56,300 nucleotides of DNA from a virus (lineage: Duplodnaviria > Caudoviricetes). The DNA lies in IMG/VR virus record IMGVR_UViG_3300029442_000006, positions 1-56,300 of that record; one strand, given 5' to 3'. Below are positions 4,833 through 39,405 of this stretch, piece after piece; within the stretch, counting starts at the first letter, position 1; each line of letters opens with the position of its first letter. The notes under the pieces were generated by a model, which searched no databases, was not told where the DNA came from, and saw only the letters and a list, made by a program, of their open reading frames with translations. The translations under genes and the position numbers were made by a program.

Positions 4833-4843
4833 ATGTGTTCTCC

Positions 4844-6489: not shown

Positions 6490-6496
6490 GCCACTT

Positions 6497-6518
6497 ACTA
6501 CTGCAACTTTCGGGCCGA
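6497..6518 (-). promoter_or_regulatory. Sigma-54 (-24/-12) late promoter P1
   Basis: TCGGCCCGAAAGTTGCAGTAGT; GG-N10-GC; intergenic; one of four copies. Confidence 0.85.
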
Positions 6519-6524
6519 GTTTTG

Positions 6525-8356: not shown

Positions 8357-8360
8357 GTTA

Positions 8361-14034: not shown

Positions 14035-14053
14035 GTTTTTCCTTTGGGTTAAA

Positions 14054-14245: not shown

Positions 14246-14256
14246 TGTGCTATTCC

Positions 14257-14278
14257 ACTACTGCAACTTCCGGGCCAA
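14257..14278 (-). promoter_or_regulatory. Sigma-54 late promoter P2 (head of the scaffold/capsid/tail module)
   Basis: TTGGCCCGGAAGTTGCAGTAGT; intergenic. Confidence 0.88.
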
Positions 14279-14286
14279 GCGACCAG

Positions 14287-14709
14287 CTACGGCATATTGA
14301 CTACCGCCTTGTCATACGTCTCCCACGAAATCCCAAGCTGACGGCAAATCAATTTCTCAATCTTGGTGGCAAATTTATGCTGCCGACGGTAGGGGGCTTT
14401 CGGGTGATTACCGGGTTCGGCTGTGCTGGAGTGTTTACCCACTTCTCGATCCTGCTCAAATTTTATATCAAAGTCCGAAACTTCGGCATCTGTAATCCCT
14501 TCTCTCAGGCAAAGGTACGCCTCAATCAATTCGTGGACAGCAACCATGAACTCGTAATCCGCATTATTCATCTTGGAAACACGGACATCCAAGCGAATGC
14601 AATCTTTGCCATCTAAAAACGGAATCCAATCACCGACCGTCGGGTATCTGTGGTTCTTGTGATCAATCGGATAAACCAACAAGGAAGGCATCTGTTTTTG
14701 AGTTTTCAT
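14287..14709 (-). CDS. Putative zincin-like/metal-binding protein (140 aa)
   Basis: RYPTVGDW...VAVHELIEAYLC...EPGNHPKAPYRRQH; HExxE motif; TAATG-coupled to the ATP-grasp gene. Confidence 0.55.
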   Translation of the reverse strand: MKTQKQMPSLLVYPIDHKNHRYPTVGDWIPFLDGKDCIRLDVRVSKMNNADYEFMVAVHELIEAYLCLREGITDAEVSDFDIKFEQDREVGKHSSTAEPGNHPKAPYRRQHKFATKIEKLICRQLGISWETYDKAVVNMP

Positions 14710-18079: not shown

Positions 18080-18087
18080 GTTTTATC

Positions 18088-18318
18088 TCAAAGATTCGGC
18101 TTGAGCTTGTGGCGGTGGATTAACCAACAGAGCCATGCGCTCAATCGTGAGGGGTGTCCAAGACAACCGATTTTGCACTGCTCAAAAAACGTAAAATACG
18201 TCCAACGATAGCCATGTGTAAATTCCACCAACTTAGCCTGACGCTTCAACCCTCCCACTGTAATCCGCCTCGGCAAGGGCAACGCCACCGCCAGAATTAG
18301 CAGACCAAACAGCTTCAC
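18088..18318 (-). CDS. Hypothetical protein (76 aa)
   Basis: GTGA overlap with the upstream small ORF; fills the gap before the portal. Confidence 0.45.
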   Translation of the reverse strand: MKLFGLLILAVALPLPRRITVGGLKRQAKLVEFTHGYRWTYFTFFEQCKIGCLGHPSRLSAWLCWLIHRHKLKPNL

Positions 18319-18476
18319 AGCGACCTCGCGATAGATTCTTGCTGGTTTAATACTCCGCCACTCCCGCCACCAGAGACGCGCGGACGCTTATTCGTCGGAA
18401 CAACCGAAGAAGGGCGGGGGAACTTCCGCTTGCGATTCGGGATTTTAGTGCGGTATTTGACTGTCGGTTTACTCAT
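18315..18476 (-). CDS. Small basic protein (53 aa, MSKPTVKYRTKIPNRKRKF...), first gene after P3
   Basis: Translated by hand (below the track cutoff); ATG 10 nt after the sigma-54 motif; stop overlaps the next start. Confidence 0.55.
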   Translation of the reverse strand: MSKPTVKYRTKIPNRKRKFPRPSSVVPTNKRPRVSGGGSGGVLNQQESIARSL

Positions 18477-18486
18477 CTATGTATCA

Positions 18487-18508
18487 ACTACTGCAACTTC
18501 CGGGCCAA
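18487..18508 (-). promoter_or_regulatory. Sigma-54 late promoter P3 (portal module)
   Basis: TTGGCCCGGAAGTTGCAGTAGT, identical to P2; intergenic. Confidence 0.88.
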
Positions 18509-18614
18509 GCGCGACAAGGGTTTTCCTTGCTGGGATATATCCTAAAAACAAGCTAGCTCTTTTGAGCTAGCTTCCTACGGGATAACTTAGGCGGAAGAGG
18601 AAACCCTTACGCGC

Positions 18615-20366
18615 CTATATTGATTTACCGAGATTCCACCGGCGTTGCGGAGTGTAAGACTGTTGCGGACGTTTTGCGCTGCTTCCCCACGAAGTCGGAT
18701 TCAGGTTCGGATCGCCCACAATCGGCTTTGCCGCTTGCGCCATAGCGTTGCGATTGGCTTGGCTGCTGGGCATTACTGTGCCGCCAACAACTCTCGCCCC
18801 GACTCCGCCACTGGCAGCACGCTTATCTAGTCCAATCACATTCCAAGTCATGTATGACCAGCAATCTACAACGTGGTCAAACTCGCCATCTTTGACGGGC
18901 AAGCCATCCTCGCCACGATGATAACCCCCGCGTAACGCCGCCAATAACTTCGGGCAACCCGTTGGATCAACCTCTAGGCTCCCAGACGATATTATGGATT
19001 GAGAAACATCCAGACGAGTATCTACCGCCGCCACGCTCGTTTTAACGATAATACCATACGCCGCGCAAACCTGAATGGAACTTTCACCGGTCTTGTCAGA
19101 ACGCTGGTGGCCGGCGGGATCACCGTAGTATTCGACGATGGCTCGCGGAAAGACACGCGCCACATACGGCAGTAGGTAATCTTCGAGAAAATGCCCGATT
19201 GTGACGTTGTTGGCGATCGTTTCCTTTAAAACGTGCATTCGCAGTTGTACCGGCTTGCCGGATTCACCCGCCAGAGGCTCAATCTGGCTGAAGGTTGCCG
19301 CTGTCTCAGTAAAACCGAAATCCAAACCGACAAAGACTTTCAACGACGGATCGTAAAGCTGTGGAATCGCTGAAATCTTCTCCGTGTCGCAAAAAACCGG
19401 CAAACCCGCCGGTACGGCAAAATCTACTTCCATTTCTCGGTTCCACTTTCTCGTGCTGTAAGAAGGCCGCACCGCATCGAACCAAGCTCGACCCTCCGCA
19501 CCGGCCGGGTCTTTCTCCGTATCTGCACTGTAATGGATTCGCAAATGCCTAAACGCATTGTAATCCCACGCCTGCAAGCCCTTTGCGAGGATTTGCATTG
19601 GTGGATTTTCCTGACCCACTGGAGCCGCCGCCGAATCATCTAAGGCTCCATACCCAAGCCGCCAAAAGAAATTACGCCCATTGGCGCTCGAAACAATGTT
19701 AAACCGTCCGCCGGCACCGACGCAGGGTAGGGCGGCAGCATAGATTTCATCCTGCCCAGACTGAAACGCCGCCTCATCCCAATTGATTCCAGAGTAAGTA
19801 AAGCTTCGCAACTGGTTCGCTGCATCCGCCGCGCGACCACGTTCCGCCGCTATTGCCTCAATTCGACTGGTCGGAATCGCGCTCTCCGCATCATGAAACA
19901 CCCGCAACTCGCCCTCCACAAATTCCACAACCGGCTTTTCCCATTCCGAGGGTATCTCTTGGTAAATGTACTGCAACCGGCTTTGCAGGTGATCACTAGC
20001 GTCCGCAAAAGTCTTGCATATCCACGCCACCCTCTGACCGCGATTCTTCAAAACCCAATGCAACCATAACGCCGCCAACAGCCATGTGATCAAGATTTGC
20101 CGGCTTTTCTCAATCCTCAGCCTCCGATTGCGCTCCCACTCTCGTACTGTCATCTGCAGGTAAGCCTTGTCAGGGAAACGCCGGCGCGGATCAAGACCAG
20201 TTGTTTTCGCCAGCTCATCGAATGTGTAGCAGCAATCGCGCACGAACTCCCACGGATCATCGGGTATCGGCTTCCGAATCGCCGGCTTAATCTTTGTCGC
20301 CGCCAAAAAAGTATCAGCGATGACTTTGTTGACCGTAAGTTTCGATGTCTTGAGCGAGAGCGGCAT
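18615..20366 (-). CDS. terL: Terminase large subunit
   Basis: EKSRQILITW (Walker A variant), NWDEAAFQ (Walker B), VSSANG, RNase H-like VGLDFG, YGDPAG, DHVVD. Confidence 0.92.
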   Translation of the reverse strand: MPLSLKTSKLTVNKVIADTFLAATKIKPAIRKPIPDDPWEFVRDCCYTFDELAKTTGLDPRRRFPDKAYLQMTVREWERNRRLRIEKSRQILITWLLAALWLHWVLKNRGQRVAWICKTFADASDHLQSRLQYIYQEIPSEWEKPVVEFVEGELRVFHDAESAIPTSRIEAIAAERGRAADAANQLRSFTYSGINWDEAAFQSGQDEIYAAALPCVGAGGRFNIVSSANGRNFFWRLGYGALDDSAAAPVGQENPPMQILAKGLQAWDYNAFRHLRIHYSADTEKDPAGAEGRAWFDAVRPSYSTRKWNREMEVDFAVPAGLPVFCDTEKISAIPQLYDPSLKVFVGLDFGFTETAATFSQIEPLAGESGKPVQLRMHVLKETIANNVTIGHFLEDYLLPYVARVFPRAIVEYYGDPAGHQRSDKTGESSIQVCAAYGIIVKTSVAAVDTRLDVSQSIISSGSLEVDPTGCPKLLAALRGGYHRGEDGLPVKDGEFDHVVDCWSYMTWNVIGLDKRAASGGVGARVVGGTVMPSSQANRNAMAQAAKPIVGDPNLNPTSWGSSAKRPQQSYTPQRRWNLGKSI

Positions 20367-22464: not shown

Positions 22465-23280
22465 ATGAATAAATCCGATCAGCTAGACTTGCTCGCTACC
22501 GCATTAGCAGTAGCACAAGGTCAAATCAAAAACGCTAGTAAAGACTCCAAAAACCCCTTCTTTAAGTCAGCCTACTCTACGCTAACGAGTGTGCGCGATG
22601 CAATCAATGATGTGTTTACGCAGAACGGCCTAGCAATTACGCAGTTGCTTGGTAACGATGACCACGGCGTTACCGTTGAAACTGTCTTGCTCCACAAGTC
22701 AGGTCAATGGCTGTCCGGCGTGGTGAGCGTGCGGCCAGTCAAAGACGACCCGCAAGCACTTGGAAGCGCGGTGACGTATGCGCGACGGTATTCACTGTCT
22801 GCGATTGCTGGCATTGCCAGTGAGATTGACGATGATGGGGAGGCGGCGATGGCGCGGGATGCACAGAAGCCGCGAGACACAAAGACGGCCACACCGAAGT
22901 CAACGCCGCCCCCTGTCGCGTTAGCCAAGCCGGTTGAGCAACCTAAAGCCGCGCCAACAAAAGCGACACCACCACCGGCAGCGACAGACACTAAAGAACT
23001 CTTGCCCGGCGTTAAATCCATCATCGGCACGTTTAACAAGGTTTTTACAAAAGAAGGAACGTCAAGCCGTGGCGCGTGGGTTAAGGCTAGCGTTAGACTT
23101 GGTGATGTATGGTACTCGACATTCGACGAGCGTCTGCGCGGCAAGCTTGACGAGTTGAAAGATTTGCCAACGGAGATTCGCTACATGACCGACAGCAAAG
23201 GCTTCCACTCGGTTGTGGAATTGTTGCCAGCCGAAGCCGCGCCGACACCAGAACCGCAAGACGATGATATTCCTTTTTGA
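22465..23280 (+). CDS. erf: ERF-family single-strand annealing protein
   Basis: KDSKNPFFKSAYSTL, LLHKSGQW, PQALGSAVTYARRYSL..IAG..DDDG; SSB-like acidic tail DDDIPF. Confidence 0.92.
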   Translation: MNKSDQLDLLATALAVAQGQIKNASKDSKNPFFKSAYSTLTSVRDAINDVFTQNGLAITQLLGNDDHGVTVETVLLHKSGQWLSGVVSVRPVKDDPQALGSAVTYARRYSLSAIAGIASEIDDDGEAAMARDAQKPRDTKTATPKSTPPPVALAKPVEQPKAAPTKATPPPAATDTKELLPGVKSIIGTFNKVFTKEGTSSRGAWVKASVRLGDVWYSTFDERLRGKLDELKDLPTEIRYMTDSKGFHSVVELLPAEAAPTPEPQDDDIPF

Positions 23281-24817: not shown

Positions 24818-25023
24818 CTGATTTCAAGATGAGCGATGCCGAGCGCATCCGTAACCGTAAATACCAAGCTGACTTCAAGAAACGTCATGTGCTATTCCAC
24901 GAAGCGATGCGGCAAGCGTTGCAAGCCGTCGCTGCGTTACCGGGGTTACTAGAGGCTTACGGTAACACGCGCAAGGCTAACGTGATTAGGAAGGCGATAA
25001 AATTGATTGAGGATGAGGAATAA
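24814..25023 (+). CDS. Hypothetical protein (69 aa)
   Basis: ATGA coupling; MSDAERIRNRKYQ basic helix. Confidence 0.55.
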   Translation: MTDFKMSDAERIRNRKYQADFKKRHVLFHEAMRQALQAVAALPGLLEAYGNTRKANVIRKAIKLIEDEE

Positions 25024-25208
25024 TTCTTGACGTGGTTTGTATTGTGTGAGAATATAAAAACGTGAAAAGCATTTACGACAATGAAAAAAAGCAAAACTTT
25101 ACGCACTCTTAGTTTGTGCCGAAAGGCAACGGTTTCTCGTAAATCCCGTTCACAACAGGCTAGGAGTGTGTTTTTTACCGGTGAACTTTATTACCAAAGC
25201 TGGTTAGA

Positions 25209-25958
25209 ATGAAGGTGTATCAAATCCGAGAATGGAACAAGTATTACGAAAACAATCGCACACGCGATCTTAAAAACATGGCGTGGATTCCAGTCCCTAA
25301 CGCTCACGATGGCGATGGTTATACAACGCTTGTAAGCCGCGAAAATGGCGCGGCAATGTTGGGCGCATGGTTAGCAATTCTACAAGTCGCATCTAAGTGC
25401 GACCCTCGCGGCACCCTACTGCGGCGCGGTAAAATACCGCATGATGCTGAATCATTGTCACGGATTACAAGATTGCCGTCAGGCATACTTTCGGAAGCAC
25501 TAACCATCTGTTCTGTTGAGATACAATGGCTTGAATATGTAGAGGTTACAGAAATCCCGCAGGAAGGTGCGGGATTCCCGCAGGAAGGTGCGCCTAAACC
25601 GCAGGGTACTGACGAAGAAGGGAAGGGAAGAGAAGGAACGGAAAAGAAGGGAATGGACGGTGGCGAAATACCCACTTTAACCATGTGCCAAGAGTATGCC
25701 AGCAATCCGGCTTGTGGCTTTCCATCGGAACTTGTCGAGGAATGGTTTAATAAATCCAGTGATCGAGGTTGGGGGCAAGACTGGAGAGCTAGGATGCGCG
25801 GCGCGGTCGCAACATATCGCGGAATCCAAAACGAGAGGAATCAGAAAAATGGACGACAAAGCAAATACAGTGGTGCAACAAGTAATCAGCCGTCACCCAG
25901 CGACGGTCAATATGACGGATTTGAAGGTGAGGTCATTTCCACCGTGCCGAAAGTGTAA
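25209..25958 (+). CDS. Phage replication initiator protein
   Basis: YQIREWNKYYE...WIPVP N-domain, internal iterons, C-domain EWFNKSSDRGW..DWRA; followed by a DnaC-like gene. Confidence 0.75.
   Translation: MKVYQIREWNKYYENNRTRDLKNMAWIPVPNAHDGDGYTTLVSRENGAAMLGAWLAILQVASKCDPRGTLLRRGKIPHDAESLSRITRLPSGILSEALTICSVEIQWLEYVEVTEIPQEGAGFPQEGAPKPQGTDEEGKGREGTEKKGMDGGEIPTLTMCQEYASNPACGFPSELVEEWFNKSSDRGWGQDWRARMRGAVATYRGIQNERNQKNGRQSKYSGATSNQPSPSDGQYDGFEGEVISTVPKV
25555..25605 (+). repeat. Iterons / probable replication origin inside the initiator gene
   Basis: TCCCGCAGGAAGGTGCG twice at 21-bp spacing plus a partial third copy (CCGCAGG), followed by a purine-rich tract; lambda O-like layout. Confidence 0.6.
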
Positions 25959-26508
25959 ATGCACCGATAACGATACTGCTGGCGAGTTTCAGCTTTGCAC
26001 TTATTGCTGGAATGGATTGTTGCAAGAATACAAAACTTTTCCAAAATTTTACCGTGAGAGAGTCAAAGCTGGAGAGGGGCAAGCCGTAGAAATGGAAAGC
26101 CGCCCATTTATCACGTTGCTAGGGAAAGCTGGAGTCGGCAAGAGCATCACGGCTGTCAAGTTGGCGCGGCGTCTATGTTTTGAGAATGTTTTAACTCCAG
26201 CTTTTAAGAATTGCGCTGAGTTGATGATGGAAATTCGCGCCACGTTCCGTGATAAGTGCGACCGTACTGAGGAATACATTATTCAAGAAATATCTCGCGT
26301 ACCGCTTTTAGTTCTTGACGATCTCGCGGCTGAGAAAGTCAGTGATTACAGTGTGTCAACTCTCTACATCATTCTCAACCGGCGCGGCGAACAAGATAAG
26401 CCAACGATTATTACCAGTAATTTAAGCATTAAAGAAATCGCCGAGACAATGGGTGACAGAATCGCTAACCGCCTTGTTCGGTATGGGAAAGTGGTAACAC
26501 TAAAATGA
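25849..26508 (+). CDS. DnaC/IstB-like helicase loader ATPase
   Basis: GKAGVGKS Walker A, LLVLDDL Walker B, PTIITSNL, GDRIANRL; N-terminal CRKC...CTYC. Confidence 0.88.
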   Translation: MDDKANTVVQQVISRHPATVNMTDLKVRSFPPCRKCKCTDNDTAGEFQLCTYCWNGLLQEYKTFPKFYRERVKAGEGQAVEMESRPFITLLGKAGVGKSITAVKLARRLCFENVLTPAFKNCAELMMEIRATFRDKCDRTEEYIIQEISRVPLLVLDDLAAEKVSDYSVSTLYIILNRRGEQDKPTIITSNLSIKEIAETMGDRIANRLVRYGKVVTLK

Positions 26509-26819
26509 AAACCAATCCCGACATAGTGATAGCCTACTGGCGAGCCGCCGGGATACCGGAGCCGATAACCGAGTACAAGTTTGCAATCATGCTAGGCCGT
26601 AAGTGGCGCATGGATTACGCATGGCCGGAACGTAAGCTCGCGCTCGAAGTGCAAGGTGGAATTTTCATTCAAGGTCGGCACAGTCGCGGCGCGGCGTTGC
26701 TAAAGGAATGGGAAAAACTTAACACTGCCGCCGGGATAGGCTGGCGATTTCTGTACTGTCAGCCCAGCGATCTACTTAAACAGCCGCTAGTTGACCAAAT
26801 CAAGAAAGCACTTCACTAA
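26505..26819 (+). CDS. Restriction-endonuclease-fold nuclease (DUF559/Vsr-like)
   Basis: EYKF...RKWRMDYAWPERKLALEVQGG...GRHSRG...EKLNTAA..GW. Confidence 0.8.
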   Translation: MKTNPDIVIAYWRAAGIPEPITEYKFAIMLGRKWRMDYAWPERKLALEVQGGIFIQGRHSRGAALLKEWEKLNTAAGIGWRFLYCQPSDLLKQPLVDQIKKALH

Positions 26820-27172
26820 TGAAACAAACCCCACTTCGCAAGCGCAGCCCACGCAAGGCTGAGACTGACCGGCTAGATGCTGCCGATAAGAAGCTACTAA
26901 TGGGCATGGTGTTCCCTAAGTGCGCGATTTGCGGAGGCATCCATGACTTGCATTTGCATCATATTTTCGGCAAGAAAGCGTTTCCACACTTACGGCACTA
27001 CCGACCAAACCATATGCTACTTTGCCCCCGTCACCATTTTCTCATTCACGACAAGCCGGCAGTCGGCAAGCTGCTAAGCATCGGCGTTATCCGCTTTGAG
27101 GCTTGGCAGGAATTAGAACGGCTGGCTAACCAACGTAAATCAGACAGGAGCTTGGCGTTCCTTCTTTTGTAA
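26819..27172 (+). CDS. HNH endonuclease-like protein
   Basis: CAICG...HLHHI...NHMLLCPRHH..IH. Confidence 0.75.
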   Translation: MKQTPLRKRSPRKAETDRLDAADKKLLMGMVFPKCAICGGIHDLHLHHIFGKKAFPHLRHYRPNHMLLCPRHHFLIHDKPAVGKLLSIGVIRFEAWQELERLANQRKSDRSLAFLLL

Positions 27173-27192
27173 AAACCTTGTCAAACGTGCCG
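27150..27192 (-). repeat. 43-nt inverted copy of erf coding segment 23025-23067 (41/43 identical)
   Basis: Direct alignment. Confidence 0.9.
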
Positions 27193-27210
27193 TCGAGTGC
27201 AAATTGGGTG

Positions 27211-27238
27211 TTGACAAACCTAGCGATAGGTATAGAGT
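27211..27238 (+). promoter_or_regulatory. Sigma-70-type promoter of the accessory module
   Basis: TTGACA-N16-TAGAGT just before the ATG at 27245. Confidence 0.55.
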
Positions 27239-27244
27239 GTGGGC

Positions 27245-27445
27245 ATGAGAAGAACCAATAAAAAAAGCGTGCGAGCCAGCCTCATCAAACTCCGTGGACT
27301 CTGCCACGAGCATAATATCAACGTGGACGATATGCCCATGCCACGCGACGTGCGGACGTGCAGTGACCTCGGCGACCAAATCGGCCTCGTGATGGAGCGA
27401 CTCCAAAAAGCCGGAGTGATGGACGGTAATGTGGTGGTGAAATGA
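27245..27445 (+). CDS. Hypothetical protein (66 aa)
   Basis: Follows the promoter; ATGA coupling to the next gene. Confidence 0.55.
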   Translation: MRRTNKKSVRASLIKLRGLCHEHNINVDDMPMPRDVRTCSDLGDQIGLVMERLQKAGVMDGNVVVK

Positions 27446-27618
27446 ACCGTGCCGCCCAAGCCCTCGGACGAATCAAGACCGCAAAGAAAGCCGCCGCCAG
27501 CCGGGAGAACGGCAAGCTCGGCGGACGACCGAAGGAACAGAAACGCAAAGTGGCGAACGACAAGCTATGCGGCGGCGCTGCGCCGTCCGAATCAGCGTCT
27601 GGTTCGCTGTCGGAGTAA
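27442..27618 (+). CDS. Small basic protein (58 aa) with KAAASRENGKLGGRP motif
   Basis: Translated by hand; common phage basic motif; C-terminus runs through the attC-like site. Confidence 0.6.
   Translation: MNRAAQALGRIKTAKKAAASRENGKLGGRPKEQKRKVANDKLCGGAAPSESASGSLSE
27552..27608 (-). mobile_element. Complete integron attC-like site
   Basis: Minus strand AGCGAAC-CAGAC-GCTGATTCGG-A-CGGCGCAGCGCCG-CCGCATAGC-TTGTC-GTTCGCC: R''/R' boxes, 5-nt spacers, L boxes with an unpaired base, terminal hairpin. Confidence 0.75.
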
Positions 27619-27621
27619 CGA

Positions 27622-28113
27622 ATGCAAGAAACGCTCGACATAGGCTTCGCCCACGACCGCACGACCGGGAAAGAGGACTGGCTGACACCGCCGGAAATCA
27701 TCCGTGCCTGTGGCGACTTCGACCTCGATCCGTGTGCGCCCATCAAACGACCGTGGGACATGGCGAAGAAACACTATACACTCGCGGATAACGGCCTGCT
27801 CAAACCGTGGGAAGGGCGCGTCTGGATGAATCCCCCCTACGGCAACGAAACTGCGCGATGGATGGAACGCCTCGCCAAACACGGCAACGGAATCGCGCTC
27901 ATCTTCGTGCGAACTGAAACAGCGACCTACTTCCCGTGGGTGTGGGAATATGCGACCGCAATCCTTTTCCTGCGCGGTCGCCTGAGCTTCTACACGCTCG
28001 AAGGCAAGCGCGGCGGCCCGGCAGGTGCGCCAAGCTGCCTGATAGCCTACGGACAAAACAATGTGACCGCGCTGGAGAAATGCGGCCTGAGAGGAAAGCT
28101 GGTGAGACTATGA
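27622..28113 (+). CDS. dam: Phage DNA N6-adenine methyltransferase (phage Dam family)
   Basis: WLTPPEI...FDLDPCA...YT..DNGL..PWEGRVWMNPPY...RTET..F...FLRGRLSF. Confidence 0.9.
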   Translation: MQETLDIGFAHDRTTGKEDWLTPPEIIRACGDFDLDPCAPIKRPWDMAKKHYTLADNGLLKPWEGRVWMNPPYGNETARWMERLAKHGNGIALIFVRTETATYFPWVWEYATAILFLRGRLSFYTLEGKRGGPAGAPSCLIAYGQNNVTALEKCGLRGKLVRL

Positions 28114-28286
28114 AGAAACTCAACCTGCTGGCGCACCTGACGCCAGCCGAAAACAAAACGTGGACAACTGCCTTTGAGTATCACGTCAACAACGGGAAAA
28201 CAGACCGGCAAGCTGATGCGCTGGCGTGGAAAGAAACCGCCCGCGAACATCCGAGACTCAAAAAATATGTGGGGGCAAAAACATGA
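28110..28286 (+). CDS. Hypothetical protein (58 aa)
   Basis: ATGA-coupled on both sides. Confidence 0.55.
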   Translation: MKKLNLLAHLTPAENKTWTTAFEYHVNNGKTDRQADALAWKETAREHPRLKKYVGAKT

Positions 28287-28738
28287 TCAAAGCAATCTAC
28301 CGCGCCCGTGAAGATGGTGGCTATGACTTCGTGGCAGCATTCGAGACAGAGGAAACGCCACAAGAACCAAGCAACTGGCCGAATGAAATAACCGAATGGC
28401 TACGCAGTGAGGGCGAAGATGTGCTCGTCGTTGAAAATATCTCGCTGCACAATCTGACGGATGTGTGGAGCAAGGCGACAACTCCACCGCAACCCACCCG
28501 CCAATATCGCGCCGACGATGAAGATGAGGACTGGCAAAAGGAACTGGCCGCGCAACTGAATCGGCTGATGACTCTCGCCAACAAGCTGCAACAGCGCGGG
28601 GAAACAGAGGCGATGCAAGACGTGGACGCCGCAATCTCTCGAATCGCGGAGTTTGAGGGCATCCAGCTTGCTCGCACGAATGAGACAGCGAACGTCCAAG
28701 CTGAGCCGCCCGCGCCGAAAGGAAGCGCCAATGTATAA
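28283..28738 (+). CDS. Acidic hypothetical protein (151 aa)
   Basis: ATGA coupling; the end runs into an attC-like half-site. Confidence 0.6.
   Translation: MIKAIYRAREDGGYDFVAAFETEETPQEPSNWPNEITEWLRSEGEDVLVVENISLHNLTDVWSKATTPPQPTRQYRADDEDEDWQKELAAQLNRLMTLANKLQQRGETEAMQDVDAAISRIAEFEGIQLARTNETANVQAEPPAPKGSANV
28684..28710 (-). mobile_element. attC-like half-site (R' end of cassette A)
   Basis: GACAGCGAAC (28684-28693) is the exact reverse complement of GTTCGCTGTC (27602-27611). Confidence 0.65.
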
Positions 28739-28805
28739 CCCGGCAGCAAGAATATCACATCTATAACTTCGCGGCGATAGACGCCATCAGAGGCAAGTGA
28801 GTGGA

Positions 28806-28993
28806 TGCAAAGTAAAGAAAAGGAAAATGAAAATGGCAAAACCTATCAAAGAAACTCCAATCCTCCACGGCAAAGAAGCTGAACGGTTCGCTTCTCGTGT
28901 CGAAAATAACGAGCGACGAGACCATTCAAAATCGTTTGCTCGTGCGAAGGGCGTTTATGACCGGGTGCAAAGTAAAGAAAAGGAAAATGAAAA
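28806..28993 (+). repeat. 28-bp direct repeat TGCAAAGTAAAGAAAAGGAAAATGAAAA (28806-28833 and 28966-28993)
   Basis: Exact match; contains an RBS. Confidence 0.9.
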
Positions 28994-29036
28994 CTATGAC
29001 AGCACCCCAAACTCCACCCGCCCACCCGTTAGGTGA
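28833..29036 (+). CDS. Small protein MAKPIKETPILHGKEAERF (antitoxin-like)
   Basis: Strong RBS; the N-terminus resembles small partners of GNAT genes (from memory, unverified). Confidence 0.5.
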   Translation: MAKPIKETPILHGKEAERFASRVENNERRDHSKSFARAKGVYDRVQSKEKENENYDSTPNSTRPPVR

Positions 29037-29053
29037 AGCGCATGGTTCGGACT
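29010..29053 (-). mobile_element. attC-like half-site (R''/L'' end of cassette B)
   Basis: Minus strand AGTCCGAAC-CATGC-GCTTCACC-TAAC; its plus-strand GTTCGGACT is the exact reverse complement of AGTCCGAAC at 29400-29408. Confidence 0.65.
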
Positions 29054-29069
29054 CGAAGAAAGGACAATC

Positions 29070-29447
29070 ATGAATGGATACAGAACGCTCGAAAAGGGCG
29101 AGATAATCGAAGCGGGCGACGAATACGACGCCTGCTCAAATGCGTGGAAAGACGATGCCAACTGGAAGCCAGCACCGGCGCACATGGTAGGCAAGCCAGC
29201 CAGCGACCCGAAGTATCCAGCGCACACAATCTACCGGCGGCGACTGCATCCGGCGGATGACCCGAACCACTGCCACCCGCACGACTGCGGCTACACCGTG
29301 ACCGGGCACATCCACAACTGCAACTGCGAATGGCGAGAGCATGATAATACCGGCATGAGGTATCCAGAACGGAGCGACACAACTGGCGGTGAAACTGATA
29401 GTCCGAACGGGAAGCTGAGGCACAGCCCCAGCGAAAGGAAAGCATGA
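29070..29447 (+). CDS. Hypothetical protein (125 aa), cargo of cassette B
   Basis: AGAAAGGA RBS; YRTLEKGEIIEAGDEY...IYRR phage-type motif; ends in an attC-like half-site (29400-29430). Confidence 0.65.
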   Translation: MNGYRTLEKGEIIEAGDEYDACSNAWKDDANWKPAPAHMVGKPASDPKYPAHTIYRRRLHPADDPNHCHPHDCGYTVTGHIHNCNCEWREHDNTGMRYPERSDTTGGETDSPNGKLRHSPSERKA

Positions 29448-29477
29448 ATGACACTCAAGGCGTGAACGATGGAACAA

Positions 29478-29711
29478 CTACTCCGCCCCGAAGTGACGTA
29501 CCGGTAGGCTAAGTCTTTGGACTGCCTGTAACTTGTGTTGCGCGTCCAGTAAATCGCCCAGTGCCTCTGTGACTAGCTCGCGCCGCTCACTGTCTAGCTC
29601 GCGAACATCGTGGGCCGAGACCACCACGCTCTTAGTCGTGTCAAGGGCTTTAAGGCTATGTCTGATGTAATCAGCAAAGACTTGGTTCGCAGATGGTGGG
29701 GTATGTTTCAA
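29478..29711 (-). CDS. Hypothetical protein (77 aa)
   Basis: Last gene of the minus-strand operon; ATGA overlap. Confidence 0.5.
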   Translation of the reverse strand: MKHTPPSANQVFADYIRHSLKALDTTKSVVVSAHDVRELDSERRELVTEALGDLLDAQHKLQAVQRLSLPVRHFGAE

Positions 29712-29902
29712 ATGCGGAAATTGAGTGATAAGTGTTTTAGATAAATCGAGTTCAAACTCCGGCCAAGTTTTTTAGCTAAGACTCTCGCCGGAACCTTACC
29801 GTAAAACATCCGCAAAACTTTTGTTTCTTCGTCAGTCCAACCGCGATTGCGCGGCGCGTAAGATTCTGCCAACTGTTGCAAATCGGAAAAGTCAATCGTC
29901 AA
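29708..29902 (-). CDS. Small Myb/HTH-like protein
   Basis: WTDEETKVLRMFYGKVPARVLAKKLGRSLNSI; TTGA overlap with the phosphoesterase stop. Confidence 0.6.
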   Translation of the reverse strand: MTIDFSDLQQLAESYAPRNRGWTDEETKVLRMFYGKVPARVLAKKLGRSLNSIYLKHLSLNFRI

Positions 29903-31683
29903 ACATCTAGCGTTAGGTGATTTTTTGTTTTTACTTTGAGAAGAACCGGTCGCCATTTATAGTCTCCTTTATTGGTTTCAAACACCACAAACCCGAAATC
30001 TACCGTTCCCGAACATTGCCGAGTACCGTACTTACTACCAAGCCCTTGCAAGGCCGGTGTTGTCATCGCTAACCAATCCGCGCCACCGGCATAATCGTAG
30101 TAATGGACATGGCTATTGCCGAGTATCGCCGCCTTGCCGTTGCGCCTCGTAACTATTGTTCCATTCGGAACTGAAACACACCATGTCGCACCATTGTAAG
30201 GGACTGTCTTAAAGTTCGCGCCTTTTGCCGTGATGATTTGCTTGGGGGTAAACCCTACGACATAATTAACTTTCCCCCACTTTGTCCGCCGTGACACTTG
30301 TGCTTTATATCCGTTGGTGATTAACAAAATTTGCAACCGGTCGGCAAGGTCGGAGTTGCTTGTAAAAATCTTTCCAGATCTTCCGAGTTTTTCCATGTGG
30401 CCATCGCCGCGAACGTACTCAGCAAGGAAAACCTCAAATTGGCGACGATTCATCCACATCAACCAGTCGGGGATGTTCTTCTTTCCGCCCAACAGGGCAA
30501 TTATGTTTTTACTGTCCGGTTGACGAATATAGAAAACAATCCCATCTTCCTTTGTTTCGTAAACCCGTCCATTTAACTCGTGAATCTTCTGCCCTTTTTG
30601 TTTTCTGAAATGCTTAGTATAAGACACGCCAGCTTCCTTGAGAACCGCCTCGATTTCATTTGAGCGACTTATCCTCTGGAAAAGGCGAACATTGTTCTTT
30701 TCTTTATACCCCTTTGAGCGATTCCCGGCGTCCATGTTACCCTCAGCGATGGTCCATGCCAAAAGCTTCAATACGCCATCAGGAATAACCACTCCGGGGT
30801 TTTGTAGGAAACCAGAAACGGGCAGCCTGAAGATATTCATTTTCGCCAATTCATCTGCCGGCCTCTTTAGGAAATTACGAGAGACGGAAGAATGATAGAC
30901 AATGGTGTGGTCATGCGTTACGAGCGCGTCATATCCCTTCGCTTTCATCTGAATCATGGTTTTATCTGTGTTTTGGGATGTAACCTTCTCCACGGCCTGC
31001 CATTCGAGATTCCCCGATCTGAGATTAAGAGTACATACTGAATCGCCAACAGAAATCATCCCACGCCTCTTCCATCCAGCCGGTGTGAGTATTTCCGTAT
31101 CTTCCGAAAGGCACCGCACTAACACATCCGCCTTTTTCGTCGCACTATGTTCTGTCCATAATTGCGCCCAAAGGTGTTCGCGGGCGATTGCGGTATGCCT
31201 GCCGTGCGGAATTTGGCTTGAGCCGACCTTGTGTTTTACATCGAAAGTCACGCCGTCCACTCGCAAGTATTGGTGGCCGGAAATGTCTGCATCGAGTAGG
31301 TGCGCGATATTCCCTTCAAAATCTTCGCCGGTGCCGGTATGGTAGGGAGTTCCATAAGTCATCACGACTTTAGTGCCTGCTGAGACTGCCTTTCGGATTG
31401 CGAATACGGCCATTTCACATTGCTCGTTGCGGTCGCTGGTAATACATTCAGTCCCACCCGACTTCTCGCCCTTACCGTCAATGCAATCGCCATTCACAAT
31501 CACCACGTCGAACTTTCCATGACGCCGCAAGGAATCGGTGTAGAAATCCCAATAAGCTCGCTGGTATTGCGCGATTCGTTTAAGCCGTTGATCCGCTAGG
31601 CTTGTGTTCAACTGCCAGCCCGGCGGGGTTAAGCCGACAAGGTGCCCGCAATGTAAGTCGGAGAGGATTAGAACTTTTTTCAT
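29899..31683 (-). CDS. Calcineurin-like metallophosphoesterase interrupted by an intein
   Basis: SDLHCGH, VNGDCIDG, GTPYH, KH, R|SHVH; predicted spliced product about 261 aa. Confidence 0.85.
   Translation of the reverse strand: MKKVLILSDLHCGHLVGLTPPGWQLNTSLADQRLKRIAQYQRAYWDFYTDSLRRHGKFDVVIVNGDCIDGKGEKSGGTECITSDRNEQCEMAVFAIRKAVSAGTKVVMTYGTPYHTGTGEDFEGNIAHLLDADISGHQYLRVDGVTFDVKHKVGSSQIPHGRHTAIAREHLWAQLWTEHSATKKADVLVRCLSEDTEILTPAGWKRRGMISVGDSVCTLNLRSGNLEWQAVEKVTSQNTDKTMIQMKAKGYDALVTHDHTIVYHSSVSRNFLKRPADELAKMNIFRLPVSGFLQNPGVVIPDGVLKLLAWTIAEGNMDAGNRSKGYKEKNNVRLFQRISRSNEIEAVLKEAGVSYTKHFRKQKGQKIHELNGRVYETKEDGIVFYIRQPDSKNIIALLGGKKNIPDWLMWMNRRQFEVFLAEYVRGDGHMEKLGRSGKIFTSNSDLADRLQILLITNGYKAQVSRRTKWGKVNYVVGFTPKQIITAKGANFKTVPYNGATWCVSVPNGTIVTRRNGKAAILGNSHVHYYDYAGGADWLAMTTPALQGLGSKYGTRQCSGTVDFGFVVFETNKGDYKWRPVLLKVKTKNHLTLDV
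30115..31113 (-). mobile_element. Intein (333 aa) with LAGLIDADG homing endonuclease
   Basis: Block A CLSEDTEILTPAGWK; block B VTHDH; LAGLIDADG helices LLAWTIAEGN and FLAEYVRGDGH; block F/G TWCVSVPNGTIVTRRNGKAAILGN|S. Confidence 0.93.
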
Positions 31684-35232: not shown

Positions 35233-35591
35233 GGTGTGAGTAAAGTTGCGGGGGGTTGCGTTCCGATAATCTGCGCGGCGTTAATCGTCCAAGCGTCTTG
35301 GTTTGCGCCACTGACTTGACCGACGGTGTAGGCGGGGAAGTTCGTGCTTGTTAGGAACGCGCTGATATTCGCCCGCGCCACGTCAAAGTTGCCGTTGATA
35401 GTATCCCACCGCCACGCCGCGCCGACTCCATTCTGCCATGTTGTGTAACTTGGATTCGGCACTGTCGCCAGCACGATATTGGTCTTTTCAATCTGGCAGT
35501 TTGAGCCGACGAAATAACCCGGACTCCATTGCGTGACCTGCCCGGTGCTGTTAGTGGTGCAAAACATTAGTGCGGCGAGTAGTATCATCAT
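35229..35591 (-). CDS. Fibre-associated small protein with hydrophobic N-terminus (120 aa)
   Basis: ATGA-coupled to the fibre gene; Thr/Asn-rich. Confidence 0.55.
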   Translation of the reverse strand: MMILLAALMFCTTNSTGQVTQWSPGYFVGSNCQIEKTNIVLATVPNPSYTTWQNGVGAAWRWDTINGNFDVARANISAFLTSTNFPAYTVGQVSGANQDAWTINAAQIIGTQPPATLLTP

Positions 35592-38323
35592 TTGAGTATC
35601 ATCCCCCGGCAGGAAACTGAATTGGAAAGTCCAAAGCCGTCAAAAGCGTAGATTCCAAAAATATAAGCCGTTGGGATATTGGTTTGTGTCCCGCACCATC
35701 TCCATTCCGGCGCACGACCGTTGATGGCCACACTCTGATAATAGGAGAGTGTCGCATTGGTCGGGTTGTGCTCGATTGCAAACCACTCAACATCTGTCGG
35801 TTGGAATCGTGTGCCGCCAAAACTCCGACGAGTACTCCCTAGCGCATCGTTAAAAGTGTTAGTGTCCGCCGCCGGGCTGGATGTATAAACCGTGTTGCCA
35901 ATACCGCGTAGAATCTCAGTGCCACTAGTCCCGGAATAAACCAGTGCGTGAACATTGCTAACACCTGTTTGCGAGCTTGCGACACCCCACGTGCGGTAGT
36001 CAGCCCCCAAACTTTCTCTCACCGCGTTTGCATTTCCCCATTGGCGGGCTATCAAGCATTCAAACCGGTGCCACGTGTTCGTTGAGGGAGACAGCAGCCC
36101 GACAATGCGTGATTGTTGAACCAGCTCGTTCGGTGACTGGAAGTCCAACCAATTCGCCCGGTTGGTTATTACCCAACTGCCGACGTTAATCACGGCTAGG
36201 CTACTCCCGTTTGTGGTCAACTGAGTCGGCCAGTATTCGACACTGCCGGTCATTTTGGTAACATCCGGTTCACCCACTGCTGCCCAGCCAAAAGCGTTTG
36301 ACATCACGACTGCGCCTGTGCGTGTGTCGTTGGAGAAGTTGACCGGAGCGACATAGGTTGCCACCGCATTCGTACCGCCTAACAAGCTTACCGTCACGCC
36401 GGTCGAGGAGTTGCTGACTGTGGCGTAGAGCAGCCCCGCGCTGGTGTTCGTGGAGCCCGTGGTGACGGCGACTAAATTATATTGTGCATTCGGGTCATTC
36501 GTCCCAATCCCCCACACTGAGCCGCTGCCGCTGACGATGCCTGCTAACTCACCGGTATTGGTCAATGTGATGCCGGAAATCTTCCCACTAATTGCCGACG
36601 ATAACGTGTTGGACAACGACACTTCCCGGTTCGTCGCCGCGCTAAGTAAGTCGTAACCGAGAGAGGTCACGGCATTACTCACCGCCGCCGCCGCGCCAAC
36701 TACGTCAAACAGATTGCTACCAAGACTGCCAATGTCACGATTCCACGCTGCCGCAACTACGCCGCTAAATGTTCCGCTGCCTGTCCATATCACAGCGCTG
36801 CCGGCATTGGTCGCGTAGAGGCTGTTTGTCGCAAACGCTGAGTTGGTGGCGAATGTGCTGCTGGCAGAATATCCGCTATTCGTGGCGAATCCCGCATTCG
36901 TGGCATAGCCGGCGTTCGTCGCGTACAGGCTGCTGGCCGAGTAAAGCGATTGGGTAGCGTACAGGCTGGAAGCTGAGAACGTCGCGCTGCCGCTGTTTGT
37001 GGCATAAAGCGCACTGCTAGCAAAAGTCGCTGTCTTACTGTTCGTCGCGTAGTTTCCAGCGGTCGAGAAATCCGCATTGGTCGCATGGCTTACGTTAGCC
37101 GCCGCGCCAATCGGGTCAAACGGCAACCCCGCAACATTCAAGTTCGTGACCGTGATCGGCGCAAACAACGTTCCAATCGCCTGCCCGTTCAACTGAATCG
37201 GCCCTCCGATTAGATTGAGTGCGCCAACCCCATTCGAGCAACTCGTAACTGTTAGAACCACCCCTGAGCAAACCAAGCTACCGCCGTTTTGGAATGCTAG
37301 CATTGTCAAGTTTGTGATATTGTTTCCACCGGCATTAACCGTGTTAGTGAGTACGTATGGGTTACTCCCTGTTACCGTAATGCTGCCGCCATTTTGAATC
37401 GCTTGACCATTGATGATGAATCCGCCATTCGTGACCGCTTGGCCTTGCAAGACCACGTTGCTGCCACCAACCGTGAGACTGCCGTTAAGTGTTAGGTTGC
37501 TACCCACGATGTTGCCGCCGGTATCAACGGTGAACGGCGAGTAGGAGTCGGAGCCGCCAACATAGAGGCCGGAGTCGCCGATTAAATAACCGCCTTCGAT
37601 ATTAAGTCCATAGGCTGTGAGGTTGCCGCCTTGGACCCAAAACCCTGTAGAAGCACCCCTTGCCCAGTCGGCGCTGTCGGCGGAGCTGGCGGTGCCGGCC
37701 CAGTTGGCGTAGCTGGCGTTGTTGGCGTTGTCAGCGTAGCCGGCATTAGAGGCGTAGCCGGCTGAGTCGGCGGTGCCGGCTGAGTCGGCGTAGTTGGCTT
37801 CGTTGGCGTAGCCGGCGGAGTTGGCGTAGCCGGCGTAGCCGGCGTTGTTGGCGTCGCCGGCGTTGTCGGCGTATGATGAGGACGTCGAGCTACCAGCATT
37901 TGCCACCGTCCCACTGGCCGAAAGTCCAGAAGCAAACGCAACATTGTTGCTAGTGATTAGCCCATTGACGTCGTTGGAGGAGATAATTGGAGTCGAGATT
38001 ATGAGAAAGTTATTACTGACCGTCCCGAGGTCCGTCTTGCTATTAACGATACCCAAGGTGGTATCGTTGGTGCTGGAGACAATCTGGTTGACTTGGTTAG
38101 AGGTTAGCGCATCGCCTGATGTAACGCCTCCGCCTGCGGTAGTTTGCGAAGTCCCGTCGCCAAAGATGATCCCTCCCTGAAAAAATCCCCAGCCATTCGG
38201 CACAAGACTCAAGGAGTGTGGTGCAGCCGGGTTACTGGAGAGCGAAAGGTTTTTCCCTTGATATTGAGCGTGGACTGAACACACGCAAAGAATTAGACCG
38301 AGCGTTGTAAGGATTCGTTTCAT
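35588..38323 (-). CDS. Tail fibre / adhesin-like protein with signal peptide (911 aa)
   Basis: GGIIFGDGTSQTTA fibre motif; 6-residue repeats YADNAG/YANSAG and YATNAG/FATNS; C-terminal beta domain; MKRILTTLGLILCVCSVHA|Q. Confidence 0.7.
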   Translation of the reverse strand: MKRILTTLGLILCVCSVHAQYQGKNLSLSSNPAAPHSLSLVPNGWGFFQGGIIFGDGTSQTTAGGGVTSGDALTSNQVNQIVSSTNDTTLGIVNSKTDLGTVSNNFLIISTPIISSNDVNGLITSNNVAFASGLSASGTVANAGSSTSSSYADNAGDANNAGYAGYANSAGYANEANYADSAGTADSAGYASNAGYADNANNASYANWAGTASSADSADWARGASTGFWVQGGNLTAYGLNIEGGYLIGDSGLYVGGSDSYSPFTVDTGGNIVGSNLTLNGSLTVGGSNVVLQGQAVTNGGFIINGQAIQNGGSITVTGSNPYVLTNTVNAGGNNITNLTMLAFQNGGSLVCSGVVLTVTSCSNGVGALNLIGGPIQLNGQAIGTLFAPITVTNLNVAGLPFDPIGAAANVSHATNADFSTAGNYATNSKTATFASSALYATNSGSATFSASSLYATQSLYSASSLYATNAGYATNAGFATNSGYSASSTFATNSAFATNSLYATNAGSAVIWTGSGTFSGVVAAAWNRDIGSLGSNLFDVVGAAAAVSNAVTSLGYDLLSAATNREVSLSNTLSSAISGKISGITLTNTGELAGIVSGSGSVWGIGTNDPNAQYNLVAVTTGSTNTSAGLLYATVSNSSTGVTVSLLGGTNAVATYVAPVNFSNDTRTGAVVMSNAFGWAAVGEPDVTKMTGSVEYWPTQLTTNGSSLAVINVGSWVITNRANWLDFQSPNELVQQSRIVGLLSPSTNTWHRFECLIARQWGNANAVRESLGADYRTWGVASSQTGVSNVHALVYSGTSGTEILRGIGNTVYTSSPAADTNTFNDALGSTRRSFGGTRFQPTDVEWFAIEHNPTNATLSYYQSVAINGRAPEWRWCGTQTNIPTAYIFGIYAFDGFGLSNSVSCRGMILK

Positions 38324-39405
38324 GATAGGAAAGCCACCGCCCAATTTCCGTTGAAAGCCGATCCACCCCCCGGAGCCACCGGAACGCTAATCCTCACGGT
38401 GTCACTTCCGGGAAGCTGCGTGAATACCGGCACGCCGGGATCCGGACCTGTGGATGGAAGGACGCCAATAGACAGCGAACCGGTCGCTGTCATTCCGACT
38501 ACTGGAATATCTACATAAAGATTCGCCCCGCTAATGCTGAAGATGCCATGTTGTCCCACGGGAGCCGGCGGTGTCGCCGGTGTTCCACTACCGCCACCAC
38601 ACGCAATCATGGAACCCGTTCTCGGCATTGGAGGAACGTAAATTCGATCATTTGTCCCTTGTCGAATTGACCGGTCTTGCAACCACGCTGAACGGAGCAA
38701 TTCTTCCCCTTGTTGTCCGAACAATGCCGCGCGGTCTTCCTCAAATGAGTTCAACGAGACTGCGCTAGCCACCAGATAACACAATTCATTGAAGAGTTTA
38801 TCACTGAAAAAGTCGGATTTTGGAGTCGAGTAGAATGTATCATCCGGCAGGGGGAGAAAAGCATCATACTCCAATTTTAGCATTACCTGAGCATCCAGCG
38901 GCGGCGCGGTTAAAACCATCTGCCCCTCTAAATCCATCCAGCCGCTATGCTGTTGGTCGGTAAATTGAAACCATTCATTCCAACCACCCCACCAGTCGGA
39001 AAGCGAACGCTGCGGTCGCTGATTGCGTTCCATTTCTGTAACCGAGCGTAACGCTCGACCGCCTGTGATGCCATTCGGAGTGACCGGACGAACAAACCGC
39101 ATTTTCTTATAATCAGACGGGTAGGGGATTCCGTAATAAGTTGTGGGGTTTGCCGGGTCTAATGGTGGATACCAGACGTATTGATGCGCTTGCGCCAATC
39201 GCCAGTTACCGTCACTAATCTTTTCCAACTTACCCGAACGACTAGAGTACCACGGCATTTGTAGTTTGCGGTGGACTACCTGAATGGAAGGGCGGATCAT
39301 CGGCGCACCGGGTAAAGCGGTTGCTGCCGTTGTCGAGCCGGCAAGGTTCGGACGGTTGAGCATCCGAACTACATAATTTTCTACATCTGCATAAGTTGTT
39401 GCCAT
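38320..39405 (-). CDS. Head-tail adaptor-like protein with C-terminal extension (361 aa)
   Basis: MATTYADVENYVVRMLNR, PSDYKKMRFV, LCYLVASA...EEDRA resemble podoviral adaptor proteins. Confidence 0.6.
   Translation of the reverse strand: MATTYADVENYVVRMLNRPNLAGSTTAATALPGAPMIRPSIQVVHRKLQMPWYSSRSGKLEKISDGNWRLAQAHQYVWYPPLDPANPTTYYGIPYPSDYKKMRFVRPVTPNGITGGRALRSVTEMERNQRPQRSLSDWWGGWNEWFQFTDQQHSGWMDLEGQMVLTAPPLDAQVMLKLEYDAFLPLPDDTFYSTPKSDFFSDKLFNELCYLVASAVSLNSFEEDRAALFGQQGEELLRSAWLQDRSIRQGTNDRIYVPPMPRTGSMIACGGGSGTPATPPAPVGQHGIFSISGANLYVDIPVVGMTATGSLSIGVLPSTGPDPGVPVFTQLPGSDTVRISVPVAPGGGSAFNGNWAVAFLS

Follow-up and report, generated by a model that had tools for sequence, protein, structure and literature searches.

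The question raised by the virus record IMGVR_UViG_3300029442_000006 (Duplodnaviria; Caudoviricetes), whose positions 1 to 56,300 make up the whole stretch of DNA analysed here (56,300 nucleotides; hereafter the window), is whether the small accessory genes at 27.5–29.4 kb, among them a gene for a Dam-type DNA methyltransferase, are cassettes of an integron carried by a phage. An attC site, the cassette-borne recombination site, is an imperfect hairpin whose outer arms bear conserved 5′-AAC-3′ and 5′-GTT-3′ motifs that pair as the R box (PMC5027507, in the passages on site architecture). An original prediction made from the sequence had placed one complete attC-like site and three half-sites in this region, inverted relative to the genes and unaccompanied by an integrase. 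The analysis presented below leads us to regard the 27.5–29.4 kb region as most probably the decayed remnant of an integron-type cassette array, whose units were exchanged by an IntI-type recombinase (integron integrase). The evidence consists of one intact site that is recognized by a model of bacterial attC sites, of three partial sites that align to the ends of complete sites in other phages, of relatives whose genes diverge at the predicted bases, and of arrays in related phages in which the same arrangement recurs.

An intact attC-type site and three partial ones

The complete site predicted at 27552–27608 on the minus strand (site A; Table 1) was recovered with exactly these coordinates and on this strand by two covariance models, R1, derived from bacterial sites (27.8 bits, E = 4.6e-5, the next-best match in the window scoring 9.5 bits), and R2, derived from phage sites (37.6 bits, E = 8.3e-8). 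With both strands scanned, the significant match was confined to the minus strand, and the plus strand of site A gave no model match at E ≤ 10. On the minus strand the site reads, in order, R″ AGCGAAC (27608–27602), a 5-nt spacer, L″ with a bulged G, the loop, L′, a second 5-nt spacer and R′ GTTCGCC (27558–27552). That is, the model alignment contains a 7-position R box, 5/5-nt spacers, a 3+6-bp L box, a short loop and one bulged base, which lies on the 5′ arm of the minus strand. In these respects site A agrees with the architecture given in the corresponding passages of Nivina et al. 2016 (PMC5027507). The R-box arms form six Watson-Crick pairs, the seventh being a G:T pair on the plus strand. 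The DNA fold has a free energy of −17.0 kcal/mol for the plus strand and −16.0 kcal/mol for the minus strand, with a top-strand GC skew of −0.05.

Both models were custom-built and are distinct from the model of IntegronFinder. R1 was made from 15 aligned bacterial attC sites located beside intI1 genes: the intI1 frame of plasmid R100 served as the starting point for collecting 80 genome loci that encode IntI1 or its relatives, hairpins with RYYYAAC...GTTRRRY ends were picked from the array sides of these loci, and the imposed structure was limited to the R and L boxes. R2 was made from 53 related phage sites, described below, with the window excluded. On held-out integrons, whose IntI is 69–77% identical to IntI1, R1 found 11 sites at 30.1–57.7 bits, all on the array side and on the expected strand, with the remainder at or below 14.3 bits. 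Noise did not exceed 15.5 bits in about 240 kb searched without filters, 96,886 bases of unrelated loci among them, with the exception of one site in contig L014. Furthermore, R1 found three attC sites in phage TJE1 at 20.8–25.5 bits, behind orf1–orf3 and on the gene strand. Site A therefore scores within the range of real sites and above the noise. R1 gave no significant match on Polaribacter phage P12002L (best 9.4 bits), which means that the model is blind to some published phage attC sites and that its silence elsewhere means little. A false-positive estimate from five whole genomes is weak, as 150 of 1395–8860 candidates were scored per genome, and this scoring route also missed the known sites of contig L097.

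The exceptional site in L014 (5346–5403, minus strand, 48.3 bits) stands at the tip of a 5.4-kb metagenome contig with a DnaC/IstB-like gene, and is probably a real attC belonging to an integron beside an IS21-type element. Another observation made with R1 concerns the metagenome-assembled bacterial chromosome G005, the genome of locus L081, in which dozens of attC matches crowd into one 23-kb stretch at 3.04–3.06 Mb, far from the IntI locus at 4.15–4.17 Mb, with more clusters at 1.87 Mb.

A homologue of site A, 60 nt long and with compensatory changes in its L box, occurs in the viral contig L097, joined there to the end of another gene, with a DUF4326 gene coming next. A pattern search of viral contigs for close copies of site A returned only the record of L097.

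Table 1. Sites, putative cassettes and plus-strand open reading frames (ORFs, in genome order) at the end of the early operon
Feature	Position	Strand	Basis or remarks
Site A, intact attC-type, 57 nt	27552..27608	−	R1, R2, DNA fold, L097 homologue
Site B, 3′ half of attC (L′, 6-nt spacer, R′ GTTCGCT at 28693–28687)	28687..28716	−	Aligns to 3′ ends of complete sites in L127 and L136
Site C, degenerate attC (R″ TCCGAAC, spacer CATGC, L″)	29006..29051	−	R2 11.0 bits, E 0.82
Site D, 3′ half of attC (L′, 5-nt spacer, R′ GTTCGGA at 29408–29402), operon end	29402..29432	−	15/15 identical to part of L145:5129–5218
Putative cassette Y: hairpin A and three plus-strand ORFs	27558..28692	−	Bounded by AA/C of sites A and B
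Putative cassette X: site C remnant and 125-aa ORF 29070–29447	29012..29407	−	Arms and divergence of relatives
58-aa ORF; last 20 codons are hairpin A in frame (..VAN/DKLCGG..)	27442..27618	+	Conserved part stops at AAC
Dam-type N6-adenine DNA methyltransferase, cargo	27622..28113	+	PF05869 43.4 bits (cut-off 28.1); phrog_111
58-aa ORF, no family	28110..28286	+	ATGA overlaps with neighbours
151-aa ORF	28283..28738	+	Tail after ..NETAN read from site B
67-aa ORF	28833..29036	+	Ends ..TPN/STRPPVR within site C
ORF	28987..29073	+	
125-aa ORF	29070..29447	+	

The three proposed half-sites (sites B, C and D) align to the ends of complete attC sites in other phages, the reverse-strand controls being lower for all of them. 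Site B has no 5′ half, and no match to it as a whole site was obtained with R1 or R2 in scans of the window. Site C is the second-best window match of R2, and a marginal one; 23 of the 24 bases of its 5′ half are identical to the complete site L101:8648–8710, while its 3′ half is decayed. Site D, in addition to its identity with part of the site in L145, can be aligned with sites of L152 and L136 at their 3′ ends, its margin over the reverse-strand control being small (15 versus 12). Folding had been suggested as a check: the 57-nt site A folds better than shuffles (z = −2.75; 2 of 200 shuffles fold as well), whereas the three half-sites fold no better than shuffles.

The complementarity described at the cassette boundaries was present as predicted. 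The pair GTTCGCTGTC (27602–27611) and GACAGCGAAC (28684–28693) is complementary at 10 of 10 positions, and the pair GTTCGGACT (29045–29053) and AGTCCGAAC (29400–29408) at 9 of 9. Expressed as R-box arms, putative cassette Y ends in GTTCGCT and AGCGAAC (27602–27608 with 28687–28693) and putative cassette X in GTTCGGA and TCCGAAC (29045–29051 with 29402–29408), each pair being complementary over 7/7 positions and reaching 10/10 and 9/9, respectively, with the flanks. Inverted repeats of 10 nt within 1500 nt occur at chance level in the window (95 pairs, versus 95.8 ± 11.6 in dinucleotide shuffles), as do 9-mer inverted repeats starting with GTT (8 versus 7.9 ± 2.8), so that the repeats alone prove nothing and need their context. 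The gapped motif CGAAC-N5/6-GCT is found 12 times in the window against 4.8 ± 2.1 expected, a number that none of 100 shuffles reached, and 6 of the 12 copies lie within 27554–29416; this motif was defined post hoc, once the sites had been seen.

Some further candidates in the region were rejected. A 206-nt hairpin at 28687–28892, in which site B would pair with 28877–28892, folds like shuffles (z = 0.6 and 0.2), and 28877–28892 as a fourth attC arm gave no attC match, with a score of 10 equal to that of the control. A scan against Rfam returned nothing relevant at E ≤ 10, and there was no attC family among the matches.

Breakpoints and antisense arrays in related phages

The close protein relatives are encoded on short contigs, and their junctions were compared at the protein level. 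The protein P0121, 94% identical to the product of ORF 28283–28738 (BLASTP), diverges directly after ..NETAN, i.e. after the AAC that ends at 28693. In the same way, P0128 and P0130 diverge from the product of ORF 29070–29447 directly after ..PN, which corresponds to 29408. Close homologues of the 58-aa ORF upstream of Dam (27442–27618) have residues 1–39 in common and different tails after the N; seven such homologues were tabulated (P0132, P0133, P0134, P0138, P0140, P0145 and L098). The tails of these ORFs are thus whichever hairpin follows, read in frame. At the DNA level, contig L101 is 88.8% identical to the window up to 27547, both sequences then reading ..CnAAC and diverging after the AAC. 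Changes of gene content in relatives are therefore bounded by the AAC/GTT points, as had been anticipated.

The original prediction had also pointed to related phages as a place to look for the same genes in another order, and this was found in the viral contig L098, where the order is the N-domain of ORF151, Dam (63% identical to that of the window) and ORF58, as opposed to ORF58, Dam, orf and ORF151 in the window. The N-domain of the 151-aa ORF (residues 1–63) occurs alone in relatives; a single-protein search of viral contigs with the whole ORF (28283–28738) found none. The helicase-loader gene was tried as another route to relatives and abandoned, 15 loci sharing that gene alone without synteny; these loci later served as negative DNA for R1. 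Among the relatives, P0122 (85 aa) joins the first 19 residues of Dam to the C-terminal half of ORF 28283–28738. This protein represents a deletion variant of the population, with no relation to the attC points.

An alignment of the 58-aa ORF family led to 78 new viral loci (665,972 bases). With default filters, R1 had matches in 13 of the 78 loci, reaching 41.6 bits, and none in the other 65, and every match of a given locus was on one strand. Without filters, ten loci gave 53 sites, with up to 12 sites per locus. In the alignment of these 53 sites all nine L-box pairs (9/9) show changes on both sides, and 93.3% of positions pair, compared with 73.0% in shuffles and 20.7–35.6% with slid partners, a figure that is favoured by the alignment having been fitted to the model. 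The L boxes thus stay paired through compensatory changes, which argues that the fold itself is under selection. The R boxes of the related sites mostly match the consensus, e.g. GCCTAAC / GTTAGGC. The related loci reach the two predicted attC sites by which a CALIN is defined; the window falls short, with one significant site, one marginal site and two 3′ halves. Cargo genes with a family assignment comprise N6/N4, C5, MT-A70 and Dam methylases, Methyltransf_24, Lar, HNH, a PAPS-reductase-like protein and DUF4326.

In an integron array, the R′ remnant with which a cassette begins and the R″ with which it ends derive from one site, so that the arms facing each other across the cargo are expected to be complementary. 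Scored over the four variable R-box positions, this arm rule held perfectly across the cargo at 19 of 36 junctions of the related arrays, versus 5 of 36 with the neighbour on the other side and 5 of 47 for the two arms of one and the same site; some match ends are off by one or two bases, which lowers the count. The arms across cargo in L097 are complementary at 7/7, 7/7 and 6/7 positions, and those around an antisense methylase in L101 at 7/7. The boundary pairs of the window thus follow a rule that is also seen in its relatives.

The inversion of the sites relative to the genes was likewise supported. No related site had a reverse-strand match at E ≤ 1, and all Pfam-supported cargo genes (11/11, i.e. 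ten in related arrays and Dam in the window) are antisense to the attC top strand; among 98 ORFs scanned, none of those on the top strand had a Pfam match. In 21 of 31 intervals it is the bottom strand that carries the longest ORF, as compared with the top strand in 9 of 9 control intervals (bacterial hold-outs and TJE1). The breakpoints in relatives fall just after the AAC of the left arm of the coding strand, which is the position of R′ if the coding strand is the bottom strand. Moreover, 46 of 48 sites examined contain an AAC, and in 36 of these the longest frame coming from upstream on the coding strand reads it as an Asn codon, against a chance expectation of one third; the ORF that reads through it stops a few to about 30 codons later. 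The canonical cassette, a promoterless ORF on the attC top strand followed by the attC, is thus not what is seen here, Dam and its neighbours lying on the bottom strand.

Two of the related arrays adjoin integrase genes. G009, the record of L132, has an antisense-cargo array of 8 attC sites at 13723–19750 and, beside it, an IntI gene (TIGR02249, 329.8 bits; cut-off 265) that occupies the same place relative to the attC top strand as bacterial intI. G010, the record of L136 and L150, encodes a terminase and has an array of 12 sites, which adjoins an IntI-like gene (TIGR02249, 229.5 bits, below the cut-off) provided that the record is circular. Tyrosine recombinases were found in G009, G010 and G011, two of the three being IntI or IntI-like, and none was found in G006, G007, G008, G012 and G013. 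The claim that the window itself has no integrase also held: no tyrosine recombinase or IntI (PF00589, TIGR02249) was found in the 56.3-kb record, which is rated 66% complete by CheckV.

The early operon and the rest of the record

The attC region forms the end of a rightward early operon, which encodes Erf, an exonuclease, a replisome organiser, a DnaC-like helicase loader and an HNH protein, followed by the accessory genes. Convergent minus-strand genes meet the operon at about 29.48 kb; the minus strand of the window encodes the terminase, a portal-like protein and a head protein. The plus-strand ORFs of Table 1 are tightly packed through ATGA-type overlaps, and all attC-like sites fall within these ORFs.

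A direct repeat of 36 nt (92%) is present at 28798–28833 and 28958–28993, i.e. 160 nt apart, each copy comprising a ribosome site and a start codon; the two copies are in different reading frames. Contigs of other organisms or variants share 28833–28964 only, with loose ends. This suggests that the small gene at 28833–29036 has been inserted or duplicated at this place.

The record is found nearly unchanged across lake and freshwater metagenomes (94–100% of sampled words in 10 runs from 4 studies). From the 14 public runs listed, contigs of 4 runs (4 studies) were placed on 25000–31000. The single joint of opposite strands in these contigs corresponds to a 43-nt inverted repeat (95% complementary) whose copies lie 4.1 kb apart at 23025–23067 and 27150–27192, flanking the Erf tail and the genes for the exonuclease, the replisome organiser, the loader and the HNH protein. 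No inversion at this repeat was seen, the same arrangement being present in the contigs of 3 runs.

Other features were observed elsewhere in the window. A 28-nt motif occurs in four copies (75–100% alike) at 6494, 14254, 18484 and 39419 and could serve as a regulatory signal. The two ends of the record, 4–441 and 54945–56300, resemble each other (91–97%) with two long alignment gaps; possibly two variants have been assembled into one record that is closed and terminally redundant. A minus-strand open frame of more than 5240 codons (40578–56300) continues off the record, its sole Pfam matches being weak ones below the cut-offs, to SNF2-related and DEAD-helicase domains. A tandem duplication of about 411 nt (93–97% identical) at 4184–4888 spans two small minus-strand ORFs, and a 9-nt periodic repeat at 37657–37900 lies within a 918-aa ORF (35588–38344) whose Pfam match is low-complexity only.

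Origin of the junctions and comparison with known systems

In the mechanism that we propose, a unit is made up of an attC hairpin and, behind it on the coding strand, of one accessory gene or more, Dam and the small ORFs in the present case. As the attC top strand is the non-coding strand, the recombinogenic bottom strand is borne by the coding strand. The upstream ORF reads the AAC of the left arm as an in-frame Asn codon, enters the hairpin and stops inside it or just behind it, close to where the following gene has its ribosome site and start codon. An IntI-type tyrosine recombinase would cut at AA/C in the folded bottom strand and so exchange units. Since the record encodes no IntI, the enzyme would be supplied in trans by the host or by a co-infecting phage, and the IntI and IntI-like genes of related phage records make a co-infecting phage a possible source. 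Only site A being intact, present-day exchange would be limited to recombination between site A and a site on another molecule.

We infer that IntI made these junctions. Judged from sequence comparison, IntI exchange at AA/C would be the most economical account of the complementary arms, the breakpoints after AAC and the gene order of L098 taken together. A wider and more tentative reading, plausible to us without being the safer half of the argument, is that the phage group possesses an adapted form of integron. Its cassettes would be antisense, in an early operon transcribed and translated through the attC bottom strands, and additions of cassettes would take place at the far end of the operon, beside the IntI that some members encode. 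Anti-restriction genes (Dam, N6/N4, C5 and MT-A70 methylases, Lar, PAPS-reductase-like and DUF4326 proteins) would be shuffled among environmental phages, the window representing a member from which the integrase and the majority of the sites have disappeared.

Several observations weigh against recombination of this kind at the locus. Only site A is a significant match, site C being marginal and sites B and D halves, so that the array as found here consists mostly of relics, and even the R boxes of site A match RYYYAAC / GTTRRRY at only two of the four variable positions each. The breakpoint evidence from close relatives is at the protein level. Contigs of the 4 runs have a single gene order, with no joint at the claimed points; rare forms being invisible to contigs, this result counts neither for nor against exchange. 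The arm rule is symmetric with respect to strand, and the orientation therefore depends on the models, on the breakpoint position and on the position of intI (two records). Moreover, the strand asymmetries of bacterial sites are absent: the bottom strand is the more stable one in 22 of 46 phage sites and the top strand in 22, compared with 23 of 26 bacterial sites in favour of the bottom strand, while a negative GC skew of the top strand occurs in 15 of 46 phage sites versus 26 of 26 bacterial ones. The strand asymmetry of G:T pairs likewise lends the orientation no support in the phage family.

The strongest of the other explanations, although unlikely in our judgement, accepts the sites as attC-derived and attributes the mosaic to homologous recombination at short boundary sequences, through Erf and the exonuclease, with the hairpins left as passive relics or linkers. 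The phage does encode both proteins, the 12–16 nt after each AAC recur between sites and so provide stretches of short homology, the window has only one complete site out of four and no integrase, and P0122 demonstrates a plain deletion unrelated to any site. Homologous exchange would not, however, yield complementary arms across the cargo (19/36 versus 5/36), a feature expected of a cassette that passes through a circular intermediate with the cut at the R box, and the related arrays stand beside IntI genes in the canonical position. The compensatory changes in the L boxes also speak for a fold that is maintained rather than passive. Homologous exchange at the boundary sequences may well add to the mosaic; it leaves the arm rule unexplained.

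It is considerably less probable that the hairpins function as RNA, for processing, as stabilisers or as translational couplers, and resemble attC by convergence. They do lie at gene junctions on the transcribed strand, with ORFs that end inside them next to the following start codon, and the usual DNA-strand asymmetries of attC are missing. An RNA element should nevertheless keep its own arms paired, and it is the arms across the cargo that match (19/36) and not the R arms of one site (5/47); in addition, a model trained only on bacterial attC DNA finds the phage hairpins, two related arrays adjoin IntI or IntI-like genes, and Rfam gave no match. Least likely of all, and scarcely credible, is a chance resemblance of a GC-rich hairpin and short inverted repeats in coding sequence to attC. 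In its favour are the shuffle-level frequency of the 9–10 nt repeats, on which it had been the first reading, and the choice of the window by eye from a very large scan. It was dropped after the model matches, as 27.8 and 37.6 bits stand against noise of at most 15.5 bits (about 240 kb unfiltered). The L097 hairpin carries compensatory changes, complete sites elsewhere correspond to the half-sites, and the breaks in relatives fall at the predicted bases; that the models would hit ordinary phage DNA at such a score is opposed by the 65 of 78 related loci that have no match at all.

The locus can also be compared with the ordinary mosaicism of tailed phages. As in mosaics and morons, the accessory genes at the end of the early region vary among relatives, with junctions at gene boundaries. 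The difference is that here the boundaries are structured sites, in which the crossover falls at a fixed base and the arms on either side of a cargo are complementary; homologous or illegitimate exchange predicts neither of these two features.

With bacterial integrons the locus and its relatives share the R and L boxes, the AAC/GTT motifs, an unpaired central spacer, a bulge beside L″, a site length of 57 nt and complementary arms flanking the cargo; furthermore, the array of the related record G009 is beside a true IntI in the usual position. They differ in that the cargo is on the bottom strand, in a phage operon reading towards intI, which means that a promoter beside intI could not express it. 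By comparison, most integron cassettes are promoterless and rely on insertion in an orientation expressible from Pc, according to the corresponding passages of Nivina et al. 2016 (PMC5027507). The bottom-strand stability and the purine skew of bacterial sites are absent in the phage family, and the present record, unlike a complete integron, has neither intI nor attI.

The closest precedent is provided by the integrons described in phage genomes. The main text of Qi et al. 2023 (PMC9892861) reports 3 complete integrons, one In0 and 17 CALINs among 10,705 phage genomes, a CALIN being at least two predicted attC sites close together, and further reports that IntI1 recombined 5 of 6 phage attC sites tested, those of TJE1 included, and that five methyltransferases are present in the phage cargo. 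Like the TJE1 CALIN, the window has attC hairpins between accessory genes in a phage without integrase, with a methyltransferase as cargo, as is known from phage CALINs in the same text, and under the same model site A scores 27.8 bits versus 20.8–25.5 bits for the TJE1 sites. The window differs from a CALIN in having one intact site, below the minimum of two. It also differs in layout: TJE1 and PH101 have the typical bacterial arrangement according to that text, the TJE1 sites being on the gene strand and behind the genes, whereas the sites of the window and of the related arrays are antisense and read through in frame. Full-text searches for attC in phages returned no other paper on the subject. 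The words 'antisense' and 'opposite' are absent from the text of Qi et al. 2023, figures and supplements excluded, and the antisense in-frame layout of this phage group, beside IntI in two records, was not found in a literature search of limited reach.

Integrons have been known as bacterial gene-capture devices, with attC clusters in phages reported only in 2023. Software that looks for an ORF with its attC behind it on the same strand, or that requires two sites, would overlook arrays such as these or assign them the wrong orientation. If the exchange is integrase-driven, it would give phages a dedicated mechanism for swapping counter-defence genes, and a cassette route between phage and bacterial integrons; the cargo, which is expressed from the phage operon, is made up for the most part of genes for DNA modification and restriction alleviation. 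With attC clusters in phages already described (Qi et al. 2023), what is new is the antisense layout with its read-through, which suggests that an uncultivated phage group uses integron sites in an arrangement that is absent from the bacterial controls.

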